Of a stretch of DNA of 64,000 nucleotides, positions 57,832-63,678 are shown piece by piece. The stretch lies in IMG/VR virus record IMGVR_UViG_3300017971_004694; one strand, given 5' to 3'. Made by a program: the position numbers and the translations under genes. Origin of the DNA: a virus. Within the stretch, counting starts at the first letter, position 1. Every line of letters starts with the position of its first letter. Under the pieces are notes generated by a model, which was not told the origin of the DNA, did no database searches, and saw nothing but the letters and a program-made list of their open reading frames with translations.

Positions 57832-57890
57832 TTAAGAATAATCCTCCTGCCGTATCTCTCTGGATATGGATTTCCATTAATATTTTAGAA

Positions 57891-57899
57891 TATTAATAG
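57891..57899 (-). promoter_or_regulatory. Putative phage promoter core CTATTAATA
   Basis: Intergenic, 60 nt upstream of fibre operon. Confidence 0.5.
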
Positions 57900-57915
57900 A
57901 TACGGCAGGATAGGA

Positions 57916-59829
57916 TTATATGTCTAATCTAGCTTTTAAAGCCCCTTCTTCAATGAGCATTCTCCTTGGTTCAACTGCTTTGCCCATAAGGATGCCAAAA
58001 ATCCTATCAGCTTCTAAATAATCAGTAATTTCCATTTTCACAAGTTCCCTAGTTTTTGGATCCATGGTTGTATTCCACAACTGAGTAGGGCTCATTTCTC
58101 CAAGCCCCTTAAATCTTTGGATATTCCCCTTAAACTTCTTTTCTTTGATAAAATCTTTGAGAGACTTATCATCTTTTAAATAATAGCTTTTTCCGCGAAT
58201 ATCTATTCTGTAAAGTGGAGGTTGAGCCACATATATGTTGCCGTTCATAATCAACTGAGGCATCTGTCTGAAGAAAAAGGTCAACAATAATGCGCGGATG
58301 TGAGAGCCATCAACATCTGAGTCAGTCATTATGATAATTTTGTTGTAGCGAATCTTAGCTAAATCGATGCTTCTACCAATTCCAACACCTATGGCTGTGA
58401 TAAGATTACCGATTTCCTTGTTGCTCATCATTTTACTGAACTCGTTCTTCTCGATGTTGAGAACTTTACCACGAAGAGGCAGAATAGCTTGAAACATTCT
58501 GTCCCTGCCCTGCTTGGCTGAACCACCAGCTGAATCTCCCTCGACAATAAATATTTCACAAATTTCTGGATCTTTGGAACTGCAATCCGCAAGTTTCCCA
58601 GGAAGCAGCATTCCGCCATCCTTGAGCACGGATTTTCTAACTGCCTCCTTGGCTTTCTTGGCTGCCTCTCTGGCCTTGAAGGCATTTACACATCGAGTCA
58701 CTATTTTCTTGGAAAGTGGTGGATTTTTCTCCAAATAGTCCATAAGTTTCTCAGCAACAGTGCTCTCTACAGCCGTCCTGGCGTCCTCAGACACCAATTT
58801 TTCCTTGGTCTGCGAGCTAAACTTGGGGTTTGGGTGCCTGATGCTAAGAACTGCTATTAAGCCTTCCCTAATGTCGTCTCCAGACAGCGAGATTTTAAGG
58901 GATTTTGGGAGATCCGAGCTTGCTATGAAGCCATTTACGGTTCGAGTTATAGCAGTTTTGAAGCCAACCACATGAGATCCGCCGTCTGGGTTGGGGATAT
59001 TATTCGTATAACACTGCAATATTTCATCATCTTCCGCGCTGTCGAGCCACTGGAAAGCAACATCTACTACAATTTTGGATCCATTGCCAACTTCTTGCGT
59101 AAATTCAAAGGGTTTGGTTAATAGTTTGCCTGGAGCAAGAAACTCCACGAAGTTAGAGATGCCCTCATCGCTTCCAAACACCTCTTTATCTTTAGCTTTT
59201 TCATCAATGAACTCAATGGTTAGGCCCTTACAGAGAAAAGAAAGCTCTCTGAGCTTTTGTTTTACTCTTTCGCCGTCGAACTTAATTACATGATGGAATA
59301 TGTTGTTGTTGGGGACAAATCTAATTGTGGTTCCTCTGCCCTTTCCAGTTTTTTCATCCACGCCCGCCACTTTTTTACCTTTTTCGTAGGCAACGGTGTA
59401 TTCTTTGCCGTCTCTACGCACAGTTGCCCTGAGACGAGTCGAAAGAGCATTAACAACGGACACACCAACTCCATGTAATCCACCAGAGACAGCGTAAGCC
59501 TTTTTGTCAAACTTTCCTCCAGCATGTAGCTTTGTGAGAACGGCCTCCAGCGCCGTCATCTTTTCCTCTTTCATGTATTTCACAGGGATGCCACGACCAT
59601 TATCGGCTACGGAGGCGGATCCGTCCTTGTGGAGGGAAACCACAATCTTGTCGCAGTGACCAACCATGAACTCATCTACGCTATTGTCGAACACTTCCAT
59701 GATCATGTGGTGGTACCCAGTGCCGTCTTCTGTGTTGCCGATATACATGCCTGGATTCTGCACGACTCCTTCAAGACCCTTGAGAACCTTGATGTCATCG
59801 TAGCTGTCTTTCTTTTTTCTTGGCGTCAT
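57916..59829 (-). CDS. gyrB: Type IIA topoisomerase B subunit (GyrB-like)
   Basis: EVFDNSVDE, DNGRGIP, LHAGGKF, GGLHGVG, VEGDSAGG, PLRGK, MTDSDVDG, RFKGLGEM. Confidence 0.95.
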   Translation of the reverse strand: MTPRKKKDSYDDIKVLKGLEGVVQNPGMYIGNTEDGTGYHHMIMEVFDNSVDEFMVGHCDKIVVSLHKDGSASVADNGRGIPVKYMKEEKMTALEAVLTKLHAGGKFDKKAYAVSGGLHGVGVSVVNALSTRLRATVRRDGKEYTVAYEKGKKVAGVDEKTGKGRGTTIRFVPNNNIFHHVIKFDGERVKQKLRELSFLCKGLTIEFIDEKAKDKEVFGSDEGISNFVEFLAPGKLLTKPFEFTQEVGNGSKIVVDVAFQWLDSAEDDEILQCYTNNIPNPDGGSHVVGFKTAITRTVNGFIASSDLPKSLKISLSGDDIREGLIAVLSIRHPNPKFSSQTKEKLVSEDARTAVESTVAEKLMDYLEKNPPLSKKIVTRCVNAFKAREAAKKAKEAVRKSVLKDGGMLLPGKLADCSSKDPEICEIFIVEGDSAGGSAKQGRDRMFQAILPLRGKVLNIEKNEFSKMMSNKEIGNLITAIGVGIGRSIDLAKIRYNKIIIMTDSDVDGSHIRALLLTFFFRQMPQLIMNGNIYVAQPPLYRIDIRGKSYYLKDDKSLKDFIKEKKFKGNIQRFKGLGEMSPTQLWNTTMDPKTRELVKMEITDYLEADRIFGILMGKAVEPRRMLIEEGALKARLDI

Positions 59830-59832
59830 TAA

Positions 59833-60249
59833 TTACCCCGTGCGCTTCTTCTCCAATTTTTTGGATATATTTTCTAATACGGTTCGTATCTCCAAGCCCT
59901 CATACCTGGCCAGGGTGAGGGCCATCATCACAACGTCGCAGATTTCCTCTTCAAGCATATCATCTGCACTTACATCACCAAACTTTTTCTTCTTGTTGGT
60001 GGAGCCATTTTCAAACTCAATCGCCTCTGCGTATTCTCCAATCTCTTCCATGAGTTTCCTGAATAGCCTATCTCTATTCTCATTTTCCCATATCTTCCAT
60101 CTTCTCAAGAGATCGGCTATGTCGTCGTCAGCATAATCTACCAGATCACCAGTGCCCATTTCATATTCAACATCACGGGCCAAAACCTTTCGCTCGTTCT
60201 CTTTGATTTCTGCCCATCTATCATAATGGGTGTCTTTTCTCCAGGCCAT
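59833..60249 (-). CDS. MazG-like nucleotide pyrophosphohydrolase
   Basis: KLMEEIGEYAEAI...EEICDV; start refined to MAWRK. Confidence 0.75.
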   Translation of the reverse strand: MAWRKDTHYDRWAEIKENERKVLARDVEYEMGTGDLVDYADDDIADLLRRWKIWENENRDRLFRKLMEEIGEYAEAIEFENGSTNKKKKFGDVSADDMLEEEICDVVMMALTLARYEGLEIRTVLENISKKLEKKRTG

Positions 60250-60250
60250 T

Positions 60251-60424
60251 TTAATTTCCCTCATCTGTATGCGGATTTTTCTCCGAAATGAAATACTCTT
60301 CATTTAACCACTTATACAAATCTAAGTTTTTGCACAAGAGACAGCAGAAAGGAAAGTTTCCATTTTCCTTTGCTTTATCTACATCATGATTTTTCTTGCA
60401 TCCTGGACAAACTATAGTTTTCAC
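60251..60424 (-). CDS. yacG: YacG-like DNA gyrase inhibitor (57 aa)
   Basis: Not in ORF track; GTG start, GAGGAGG RBS; MKTIVCPGCKKNHDVDKAKENGNFPFCCLLCKNLDLYKWLNEEYFISEKNPHTDEGN. Confidence 0.85.
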   Translation of the reverse strand: MKTIVCPGCKKNHDVDKAKENGNFPFCCLLCKNLDLYKWLNEEYFISEKNPHTDEGN

Positions 60425-60609
60425 CCCTCCTCCTCGATTTTCATAAACTCATCTATCTCTTCTTCTGTATGTCCGACGCTCGGGTAACAACAATATTTGG
60501 TGTTTGCTTCTAACATATTAGAGATGTTTTCCTTATCTTTGTCGCTCAAAATAACCATAATTGGTTGGTCTTCAGCATCGTATATCGTATCACCAATTTT
60601 TACCTTCAT
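60421..60609 (-). CDS. Small hypothetical protein
   Basis: GGAG RBS; stop overlaps yacG start (GTGA). Confidence 0.7.
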   Translation of the reverse strand: MKVKIGDTIYDAEDQPIMVILSDKDKENISNMLEANTKYCCYPSVGHTEEEIDEFMKIEEEG

Positions 60610-61342
60610 TTACTTCTCCTTGTTTAACTTCTTTCCACGGATCAAAGTGGCCGTGTTTCCACAGCTTATAATGAGTCTTCTTGTGCGCCATTTTTTCTTT
60701 GTTCTCATATTCCAGATAATCCTCAAGAGTCTTTCCATCTTTTAAGAACTCCTGATATTGATTGTGGCAGAAAAGGCAATATTGGAAATATCCAAAGTTC
60801 TCTCTGTGTAGTGTAGTAGGGCCATGTTCAATTACTCCAAGCCGATGCTTGGGACTATAATAGCCTGCGTTCTGTTCCCAATCATAATAGCTAAACTTCT
60901 CAACAGTCGCAAGCATGGCCATCACACTATCTCTCATTACCTTTGCGAGGATGCTTGCTGCACCGACTTGCCAGATCGTTTCATCTGCCTTAATTACGGC
61001 TTCCTGCTGAATATCGACATTTGGAATCTCATAATTCCCATCGACTATGATCTTATCGATTCTATGATTTTCTTTTAGCTTATCCACAGCCCGCTTCATC
61101 GCGAGGAAACGAGCCCAGAAGATATTCATCTCCTCGATTTTCTTGGGAGAGGCTGTGCCGAAAGCGTGTGGAAGAACAACGCTTAAATATTTGTAAAGCT
61201 CTTCCCGTTTCTTCTTGGAAAGCTTCTTACTGTCTTTCACGCCTTTAATTAATGGGGCATCTGCTCGTGAAATTACGGCACATGCTAAAACGGGCCCTGC
61301 TATGGACCCGTATCCTACTTCATCGACATATACTATATTCAT
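60590..61342 (-). CDS. rnhB: Ribonuclease HII
   Basis: VDEVG.G..AGP, DSKKLS, VDG, KAD, AASILAKV.RD, N.GY, HR..F. Confidence 0.92.
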   Translation of the reverse strand: MNIVYVDEVGYGSIAGPVLACAVISRADAPLIKGVKDSKKLSKKKREELYKYLSVVLPHAFGTASPKKIEEMNIFWARFLAMKRAVDKLKENHRIDKIIVDGNYEIPNVDIQQEAVIKADETIWQVGAASILAKVMRDSVMAMLATVEKFSYYDWEQNAGYYSPKHRLGVIEHGPTTLHRENFGYFQYCLFCHNQYQEFLKDGKTLEDYLEYENKEKMAHKKTHYKLWKHGHFDPWKEVKQGEVNEGKNW

Positions 61343-62397: not shown

Positions 62398-62867
62398 AGA
62401 ATCCCCAATTTTCTCACTTGGATTAAACTTAATTGTCGGGTTGGTTTAGTTCTTGGGGTAAGGCCACCCACCACATCATCGGATTCTATAAATCTGTAAT
62501 GGATTTCAGGAAACTTTAGACTATCGATTATTATGAACCCCTTTATTCTATTTAGTTTGTCTATGTATTTCTCTTCATCATACTTTCTGCCCTGCCCTAT
62601 CATATAAGATGGAACAAACTTGACGCCATATTTCGTGAGTATCCTGACTTCATAGAGCAGTTCCTCGCTACTTACATCATAGAATCCCCCTTCATCATCG
62701 TTGTAGTCCAGATTTTCATATGCCTTGGTAAGTAATCCAGCAGCAATAGTGCCGAGAACTCTACCATCCACGCCCTTGAGGTTTATCAGAAGCTCCAAAG
62801 TAGTTTTTATATCATCCGGCAGCGGGTCAACACACAAAACCCTTTCTTTAATTGGTTCAAAAATCAT
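62394..62867 (-). CDS. Hypothetical protein, possible endonuclease partner of MTase
   Basis: Overlaps MTase stop; YDV...YEVR spacing like PD-(D/E)xK. Confidence 0.45.
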   Translation of the reverse strand: MIFEPIKERVLCVDPLPDDIKTTLELLINLKGVDGRVLGTIAAGLLTKAYENLDYNDDEGGFYDVSSEELLYEVRILTKYGVKFVPSYMIGQGRKYDEEKYIDKLNRIKGFIIIDSLKFPEIHYRFIESDDVVGGLTPRTKPTRQLSLIQVRKLGIL

Positions 62868-63678
62868 ATCTTTCCTCCACCAATCTTATAAGCTCTCTTT
62901 TAGAAAGTGAGCGAACACCTGCCGTATTATTTATTATCTTCGAAAAATCTATCGAGTTGATAATACTAACAAGCTCATCTGTTTCAAGCTCTTTAGACTT
63001 GATAAAGTAGTTGCTCTGCTCACTCATTTCGCTTATATTTACAAAAACTCTGCCGGTGCTTCCGCCTACCCTTCTAACCGCAAAATCACAATCTTCCTTT
63101 GTCGCAAAATCAAACAAATCTGTGGTGATTTTGAGCTTAACTATCTCTCTTTCAACCTCTCTCCTTTCCCATATTTGGAAAGCACAAGGCACATCTATCT
63201 CCTCGCCTTCATATATGAAAGACCTTTTTGGTATATCTTCGTCATGTATTAGGTGGAAGCTTTTGTGAAGTCTATTTTGGACGCTTATTTTTCTAAAGGT
63301 TCTTGGAAGTATAAAAGCTATGTAAGTGGAGAACTCGGCAGCGTGGTTGAAAAATCTAACGGCAATGCTGGCGTTTCTCCCAAAAGGGGGATTACCAAAA
63401 CAACAAACCTTCTCGCCATTTAGATTGGCGCCTTCTGGATGGAAGGCAAAGAAATCCATTTCAACAATGGAGGGATGGGCGGGATACTTATCAATCGCTA
63501 TGCAGTAGCCATCTATCTGTCGTGAAAAACTTCCATTTCCCGCTGATGGCTCAATGAACACATCTATGTCGCTGATTTTGGATAGGATAGAAATTATGCA
63601 TTTTCTTGCGACATCTACCTTGGTGTAGTATTTATCATGAACCGAATTGGTCTTATACTTTCTTTTTTCTTTAGTCAT
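62857..63678 (-). CDS. SAM-dependent amino-DNA methyltransferase (N6-adenine-like)
   Basis: Motif I FIEPSAGNG, motif IV GNPPF, FILP. Confidence 0.85.
   Translation of the reverse strand: MTKEKRKYKTNSVHDKYYTKVDVARKCIISILSKISDIDVFIEPSAGNGSFSRQIDGYCIAIDKYPAHPSIVEMDFFAFHPEGANLNGEKVCCFGNPPFGRNASIAVRFFNHAAEFSTYIAFILPRTFRKISVQNRLHKSFHLIHDEDIPKRSFIYEGEEIDVPCAFQIWERREVEREIVKLKITTDLFDFATKEDCDFAVRRVGGSTGRVFVNISEMSEQSNYFIKSKELETDELVSIINSIDFSKIINNTAGVRSLSKRELIRLVEERYDF

Follow-up and report, generated by a model that had tools for sequence, protein, structure and literature searches.

We analyzed a 64,000-nucleotide stretch (hereafter, the window) of the IMG/VR virus record IMGVR_UViG_3300017971_004694 and found that it encodes a YacG-family zinc-finger protein two genes upstream of a bacterial-type DNA gyrase subunit B (GyrB). 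The two genes appear to have been inherited together throughout one clade of very large uncultured phages, with no GyrA found in any of the eight records searched from the clade, and the phage GyrB retains the surface on which YacG docks in Escherichia coli. The reading that we favor, and to which we give an even chance, is that the phage YacG binds the GyrB of the same phage, whether this subunit is free or joined with host GyrA in a hybrid, and acts as its brake or guard. Whether YacG naturally serves as an inhibitor or as a protector is debated; to our knowledge, no other chromosomal regulator of gyrase has had its complex solved. A natural experiment on this role is provided by a phage lineage in which YacG has stayed beside an orphan GyrB over deep divergence.

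YacG, MazG and GyrB in the window

The block consists of three genes on the same strand:

57916–59829, (–) strand: gyrB, a 637-amino-acid bacterial-type DNA gyrase subunit B
59833–60249, (–) strand: MazG-like all-alpha nucleoside triphosphate pyrophosphohydrolase (PF03819, 35.5 bits, cut-off 22; phrog_715)
60251–60424, (–) strand: yacG, a 57-amino-acid YacG-family zinc-finger protein with a GTG start

The YacG protein begins MKTIVCPGCKK...FPFCCLLCKNLDLYKWLNEEYFIS... and contains the motifs CPGC...FPFCCLLC...DLYKW..EEYFI. It matches the Pfam family PF03884 (YacG) over profile positions 2–50 of 52 (E value 1.8e-13; 50.4 bits, cut-off 25.5), and a six-frame search of the record placed PF03884 at the same location with 49 bits. 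A profile made of the window YacG and 29 relatives retrieved the E. coli YacG chains 4TMA_I and 1LV3_A with E values of approximately 8e-16. In the AlphaFold2 model (mean predicted local distance difference test score of 89), two short strands are accompanied by a short helix (residues 15–21) and a longer helix (residues 29–40), consistent with the zinc-ribbon and one-helix fold of YacG. When the model was compared with the Protein Data Bank (PDB) using Foldseek, the top four matches were the four YacG chains of 4TMA (probability 0.98–1.00, template modeling score 0.56–0.71); the E values of approximately 0.04–0.08 for these chains are expected given the very small size of the protein. On the basis of the Pfam, 30-sequence profile and AlphaFold2/Foldseek matches, we identify the open reading frame (ORF) as a genuine YacG-family zinc-finger protein and not a motif arising by chance.

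The protein thus belongs to the same profile family as E. coli YacG (PF03884; PDB 1LV3 and 4TMA) and has the same predicted plan of a four-cysteine zinc finger and one helix. Its predicted zinc ligands Cys6, Cys9, Cys27 and Cys31 align to E. coli Cys9, Cys12, Cys28 and Cys32, while Trp39 aligns to Trp40 and Ile46 to Ile47; Asp36 and Pro26 of E. coli are also matched. The equivalent of Trp40 is invariant in all 30 rows of the alignment and in every phage copy. Unlike the E. coli protein, the window YacG has a short tail, ending 11 residues past Ile46 with no equivalent of Trp59 of the acidic E. coli tail, and the equivalents of Lys30 and Gln33 are substituted. The shorter tail without the Trp59 equivalent is a trait of the window's subclade: the relatives L017, L013, L016 and L023 end in FWRN or SWGN, matching E. 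coli Trp59. The window YacG falls below the NCBIfam equivalog thresholds of the proteobacterial YacG models (32.6 and 32.2 bits vs. 83 and 79), and a direct phmmer comparison with E. coli YacG gave a weak match with an E value of 0.07. Searching 50,697 GenBank phage records with tblastn gave no match to YacG at an E value of 0.01, no PHROGs family matched it at 0.001, and IMG/VR pattern scans with a single YacG and with RNase HII returned no matches.

The window GyrB is of the short form, without the proteobacterial insert, and contains the Pfam domains HATPase_c, DNA_gyraseB, Toprim and DNA_gyraseB_C. It exceeds the cut-offs of the NCBIfam models NF004189 (822 bits, cut-off 740) and NF011501 (887 bits, cut-off 796), with the ParE models scoring below those of gyrase B; for the equivalog model TIGR01059, the score of 813 is under the cut-off of 882. 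The catalytic residues E42, N46, D73, K103, Y109, Q335, K337, E424, D498, D500 and D502 are kept and, judging by its sequence, the protein is full-length with the ATPase and TOPRIM catalytic residues intact. GyrBs of 935–1365 amino acids also exist within the clade (P0163, P0164, P0168, P0172, P0175; L023:9989-12808; L069:9995-14092). Since the GyrBs P0163–P0175 hold intein or LAGLIDADG Pfam domains, we conclude from their domain content that inteins interrupt gyrB in some relatives.

The three genes are tightly packed. The start of gyrB is located three bases beyond the stop of mazG. The longest mazG ORF begins at 60303, but translation likely begins one base past the yacG stop, with the ATG at 60249, giving a protein of 138 amino acids. 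A scan of the coding strand for promoters and terminators found nothing clear inside the block. MazG directly follows YacG in relatives too. We considered likening the pair to yacG and mutT of E. coli and dropped the comparison, the E. coli genes being convergent neighbors that form no operon.

The window is part of a 116-kb IMG/VR record with a completeness rating of 66% and the label 'provirus'. The record contains genes for a portal, a large terminase, SbcCD-like nucleases and very large fiber-like proteins, all on one strand, and these genes identify its source as a large phage and exclude a bacterial island. Three studies have yielded sediment and seawater metagenomes with near-identical DNA, and no RNA run was listed among the data sets holding it. 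An identical GyrB has been recorded from a 186.5-kb contig. The nearest cellular YacG is a protein from a Chlamydiota metagenome-assembled genome (MAG) with 56% identity, too weak a similarity for naming a host.

Inheritance of the block and the missing GyrA

An exhaustive phmmer search gave 153 YacG-family representatives. In each of the three nearest to the window YacG (86, 64 and 59% identity), MazG or a MazG remnant lies directly downstream. Contigs with a 64–73% identical GyrB showed the order RNase HII ... YacG–MazG–GyrB–fiber and varied in the middle part, having YacG–MazG–GyrB, YacG–homing endonuclease–GyrB or YacG–GyrB. The yacG–(mazG)–gyrB order held in every relative found, with GyrB identities from 86% down to 48%. 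Among 80 GyrB loci fetched from IMG/VR, YacG was found upstream on the same strand in 9 and GyrA directly after GyrB in 33, with no locus having both; huge phages with a complete gyrase thus have gyrA straight after gyrB and no YacG, whereas the window's clade has YacG and no gyrA. When whole records were searched, YacG scored above the cut-off in all eight records of the clade vs. none of the 41 other GyrB-carrying phage records.

We inferred a tree of 87 GyrB sequences, using FastTree only, and found the 14 YacG-linked GyrBs to form a single clade with a Shimodaira–Hasegawa-like local support of 100. Given the presence of YacG in all eight records, the single clade and the GyrB identities reaching down to 48%, the sequences indicate that yacG and gyrB have been inherited jointly across the clade. 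From the gene orders, we regard RNase HII ... yacG–(mazG)–gyrB–fiber as a vertically inherited block marking one clade of very large uncultured phages.

The clade has one further member, P0176, labeled as belonging to a Patescibacteria MAG. The sequence is described in NCBI as 'MAG: DNA gyrase subunit B [Patescibacteria group bacterium]' and comes from a 180-kb contig; it is identical or nearly so (tree distance of 0.0017) to the GyrB at L019:10001-11911 on a 244-kb IMG/VR viral contig. Either a phage contig was placed by binning in a genome of the candidate phyla radiation, or P0176 is a weak hint of the host.

The space between yacG and gyrB may hold MazG, a homing endonuclease or a restriction-modification cassette, while in L023 yacG abuts gyrB with nothing between. 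A DUF723/CapR/DUF4379 homing-endonuclease-like gene is found in place of MazG at L005:1496-2071, L007:4834-5754 and L010:1635-2555, with L005 retaining a 14-residue remnant of the MazG C terminus, and a gene of the same type lies between MazG and GyrB at L015:9286-10011. At L020:6826-9961 and L021:6207-9390, two C5-cytosine methylases flank another gene between yacG and gyrB, and the middle gene of the L020 cassette matches the NgoPII restriction endonuclease; at L069:7158-9991, a single C5-methylase was identified. A different kind of change is seen at L019:9502-9828, where the third zinc-ligand cysteine of YacG is replaced by Asp (FPFDKEIC) and MazG is a 35-residue remnant. With a zinc ligand changed and MazG reduced, the yacG block may be decaying in this lineage.

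A search with PF00521 detected no GyrA in the window or in its 116-kb record, nor in any of the eight records of the clade, including G002 (442 kb, 100% complete), G008 (84%) and G001 (75%). With the same profile, GyrA was recovered from 12 of 14 control genomes and from eight further phage records. When queried with the E. coli GyrA protein, G000, G001, G002, G003 and G008 gave no match either. As the phage GyrB is complete with intact catalytic residues and no GyrA is encoded, its topoisomerase activity probably requires the GyrA of the host; with a third of the genome missing, this need leans on the relatives in the case of the window's own phage. The cognate enzyme of the window YacG would then be, unlike that of E. 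coli YacG, a hybrid of phage GyrB and host GyrA.

The YacG clade is not alone in lacking GyrA. Seven phage records, rated 99–100% complete and 160–333 kb in length, have a GyrB-like gene with no PF00521 GyrA and no YacG:

L027, L031, L036, L037, L051, L079 and L088 (records G011, G015, G020, G021, G027, G034 and G039, respectively): orphan GyrB

With these seven near-complete records, orphan GyrB seems to be widely distributed among large phages outside the YacG clade and, according to the tree, to occur in at least two separate GyrB clades. That many phage genomes rated complete or nearly complete carry GyrB without GyrA is a wider pattern deserving attention. The best GyrB match to a named 'phage' was MT835476.1, 'UNVERIFIED: Bacteriophage sp.' (L002, L003; 114 kb), in which gyrB is followed by an 882-amino-acid gyrA with no YacG; we dropped the entry, as it resembles a bacterial contig.

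The initial annotation of the window had described the 57-amino-acid ORF with its YacG signature, its coupling in the order yacG–mazG–gyrB and the lack of gyrA in the window. These descriptions proved correct, down to the motifs, and both the family profile match and the linkage survey that it called for came out in their favor, with the linkage held in all related phages found and the lack of gyrA extending to the whole record and the eight related ones.

The docking surface on GyrB and the readings of the pair

The contacts between YacG and GyrB are known from the E. coli complex (4TMA; PMC4083091). Trp40 of YacG occupies a GyrB pocket formed by Met461, Leu509, Phe513, Phe777 and Arg516; Ile47 packs on His505, Leu509, Phe777 and Leu780; Asp36, Lys30 and Gln33 pair with Arg516, Asp481 and Gln517, respectively; and Trp18 and Pro26 rest on Tyr515 (PMC4083091). 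The substitution Trp40Val abolishes the binding, while deletion of YacG residues 52–65 has barely any effect and the inhibition persists; Trp59 docks on GyrA (PMC4083091). Gyrase with slightly altered TOPRIM residues escapes the inhibition by E. coli YacG (PMC4083091).

Using these contacts, we compared the docking residues among 86 aligned GyrBs. The window GyrB retains Met461, His505, Leu509, Phe513, Arg516, Gln517, Phe777 and Leu780 (E. coli numbering) and thus keeps the docking pocket and Gln517 of E. coli YacG's partner; it deviates in having Phe for Tyr515 and in lacking Asp at position 481, which lies within an indel region. His505, Leu509, Phe513, Arg516, Gln517, Phe777 and Leu780 are present in 14/14 clade members, and position 461 is Met or Leu. 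Outside the clade, Phe777 and Phe513 are variable, and position 517 is Gln in four E. coli-like sequences and Phe, Tyr, His or Cys in nearly all others. Phe458 is likewise kept specifically in the YacG-linked clade and rare among other phage GyrBs. On the YacG side, the phage copies have invariant equivalents of Trp40, Asp36 and Pro26, and the Ile47 position is mostly Ile, with Val, Leu or Phe in four copies. With the docking residues kept in all 14 members and Gln517 and Phe458 being specific to the clade, the aligned residues follow the pattern expected for a cognate YacG–GyrB pair, the reverse of that for a YacG-resistant replacement subunit.

Only five positions in the C-terminal half of GyrB are clade-specific. 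Four of them (457, 458, 517 and 520) are in the loop of the quinolone resistance-determining region (QRDR) remodeled by YacG or beside the docking strand, an enrichment that is suggestive only, as the regions were defined post hoc. A complex prediction for phage GyrB residues 394–637 and YacG, both supplied as alignments and run without controls, gave no verdict (score, 0.00; mark, 0.32) and counts neither for nor against binding.

We favor YacG binding the phage's own GyrB because the docking surface is kept and YacG is retained throughout the clade. Under this reading, phage GyrB would pair with host GyrA to form a hybrid gyrase, Trp39 of YacG would insert into the hydrophobic pocket of the phage GyrB, and the helix and linker of YacG would lie along its FFFRQM strand. 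The bound YacG would keep the free GyrB, or the hybrid, off DNA and would be a built-in brake or guard of a borrowed enzyme rather than a weapon that spares the phage enzyme. Such a brake could curb futile ATPase activity and DNA breakage and could shield the enzyme from gyrase poisons; YacG may also act on the host gyrase if the host GyrB bears the same surface. The reading fits with E. coli YacG being reported as protective against gyrase poisons (review PMC10886550) and as closing the gyrase ATPase domains and the DNA gate (PMC4083091). We give a more tentative place, clearly below even, to the proposal that the clade has a chimeric gyrase of phage GyrB and host GyrA with its own YacG as the dedicated switch. 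YacG would here keep the phage GyrB, or the hybrid enzyme, closed and off DNA until needed and could guard the enzyme against gyrase-poisoning toxins of host defense systems.

Several points weigh against the phage YacG acting on its own GyrB. The linked loci are all kin, so the conserved gene order reflects one inheritance event and counts as a single long-kept association rather than many independent ones. The docking residues could have been kept through descent from a YacG-bearing bacterium or by the needs of the TOPRIM fold. The clade has changes of its own, Arg457 to Glu, Glu520 to Gln and Gly540 to Arg, in addition to the Asp481 position not being Asp, and from their location the changes in the QRDR region could alter the sensitivity to YacG. 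With the window's record only about 66% complete, gyrA may be located in the missing third in the case of this phage. Finally, the data leave unexplained the reason for a phage to make an inhibitor alongside its own subunit.

The initial annotation had put forward as its headline an inhibit-and-replace module, in which YacG would shut off host gyrase and a resistant phage enzyme would do the supercoiling. In the form weighed here, YacG would stop the gyrase containing host GyrB, and an insensitive phage GyrB would take over host GyrA and restore the supercoiling of phage DNA only. The logic of co-expressing an inhibitor with a substitute subunit suits this idea, as do the clade substitutions at 457, 520 and 540, located in or beside elements contacting YacG, and the loss of the Asp481 salt-bridge partner, and small TOPRIM changes can matter for E. 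coli YacG (PMC4083091). An escape enzyme should, however, change the very residues that are kept in 14/14 members, namely the Trp40 pocket (Met/Leu461, Leu509, Phe513, Arg516 and Phe777), Gln517, His505 and Leu780, as well as Gln517 and Phe458, which are retained specifically in this clade and lost from other phage GyrBs. We therefore find the resistant-replacement headline unsupported and consider it unlikely, whereas the remainder of the initial interpretation (the identity of YacG, the gyrB linkage and the absence of gyrA) stands. Of the two asides in the same annotation, a self-timer or protector of the phage enzyme seems to fit the kept docking residues better than replacement does, and the hybrid of phage GyrB and host GyrA has, with no gyrA found, become the leading reading.

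YacG could instead act on the host gyrase only, as a takeover factor slowing host replication and transcription, with its proximity to gyrB simply a property of a conserved DNA-metabolism block. RNase HII, MazG, GyrB and the fiber gene are syntenic clade-wide, so the linkage may be plain inheritance; mobile genes freely enter between yacG and gyrB; and YacG-like genes occur in prophages without a stated GyrB (PMC10449497; bioRxiv 10.64898/2026.08.12.739948). Set against these are the 8/8 vs. 0/41 distribution of YacG among GyrB-carrying records, the docking surface kept on the phage GyrB and the direct abutment of the two genes in L023, and we judge a role restricted to the host enzyme to be rather improbable. 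Least probable of all, with only a slim chance, is a complete phage gyrase with gyrA in the unsampled third of the genome and YacG regulating it as in E. coli. The 66% rating, the 186.5-kb contig with the identical GyrB and the presence of both subunits in huge phages such as phage G (PMC12484599) would allow it, but GyrA was found in 0/8 related records, which include one rated 100% complete and two rated 75–84%, and the position directly after gyrB, where gyrA lies in the 33 loci of two-subunit phages, is here taken by a fiber gene.

Known systems and neighboring genes

In E. coli, yacG is chromosomal, adjoining zapD and coaE and lying approximately 3.8 Mb by map coordinate from gyrB; the window YacG differs in being encoded by a phage and within an operon with gyrB. 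Phage-derived protein inhibitors of gyrase are few: the 2024 review PMC10886550 includes only Gip of the Corynebacterium prophage CGP3 and Igy of the Pseudomonas phage LUZ24, for both of which slowing of host replication and transcription has been proposed. The window YacG is, by its family, likewise a small phage protein of the gyrase-inhibitor kind. Gip and Igy are, however, unrelated to YacG in sequence and target the host gyrase, Gip via GyrA, and unlike for the window YacG, no pairing with a phage gyrase subunit has been described for them.

YacG-like genes annotated as putative host gyrase inhibitors have been reported from the Pseudomonas aeruginosa prophage vB_PaeP-D14I (PMC10449497) and the Stromatodesulfovibrio provirus SNV1 (bioRxiv 10.64898/2026.08.12.739948). 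These are passing mentions, concerning temperate phages of ordinary size, and in contrast to the window's clade, these genes have not been linked in the descriptions to a phage GyrB or to a lack of GyrA. A bacterial-type GyrB in a very large phage has a parallel in Bacillus phage G (PMC12484599). Phage YacG-like genes and phage gyrases are thus already known, and what appears to be new is YacG paired with an orphan GyrB; a literature search limited to open papers found none on such a module. One match for 'phage GyrB' concerned a phage with the name GYRb1 and was set aside as irrelevant.

The pairing suggests that some huge phages may remodel the host gyrase by supplying a B subunit of their own in place of a whole enzyme. 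A chimeric gyrase with a dedicated YacG would, if true, be a first instance in which a virus has imported, as one module, half of an enzyme essential to the host together with the natural regulator of that enzyme. As the pocket for YacG on GyrB is a drug site, there is comparative value in the natural variants of the two partners.

Three further features surround the block:

60421–60609, (–) strand: 62-amino-acid ORF with no assigned function, translationally coupled to yacG via GTGA
60590–61342, (–) strand: RNase HII gene (PF01351, 115.8 bits), a conserved upstream neighbor
57846–57909, no strand: 12-bp perfect inverted repeat CCTGCCGTATCT / AGATACGGCAGG with a 40-nucleotide spacer, read from the sequence

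In the GTGA, the GTG start of yacG overlaps the TGA stop of the 62-amino-acid ORF. This ORF has no Pfam or PHROG match, and tblastn among the related loci found it only in L013/L014, where it adjoins RNase HII and not yacG; the ORFs of 60–67 amino acids upstream of YacG in L004, L005 and L007 showed no match to it. RNase HII itself precedes YacG in most of the related loci whose sequence reaches far enough upstream. No tRNA genes were found in the window. Further upstream, a 273-amino-acid protein at 62857–63678 on the (–) strand strongly matches phrog_5172 (232 bits) and weakly a DNA methyltransferase PHROG, with no Pfam match. The inverted repeat is located in the 84-nucleotide gap between the stop of gyrB and the start of a 1790-amino-acid fiber gene and, from its position, might serve as a regulatory site where the DNA-metabolism genes give way to the fiber gene.

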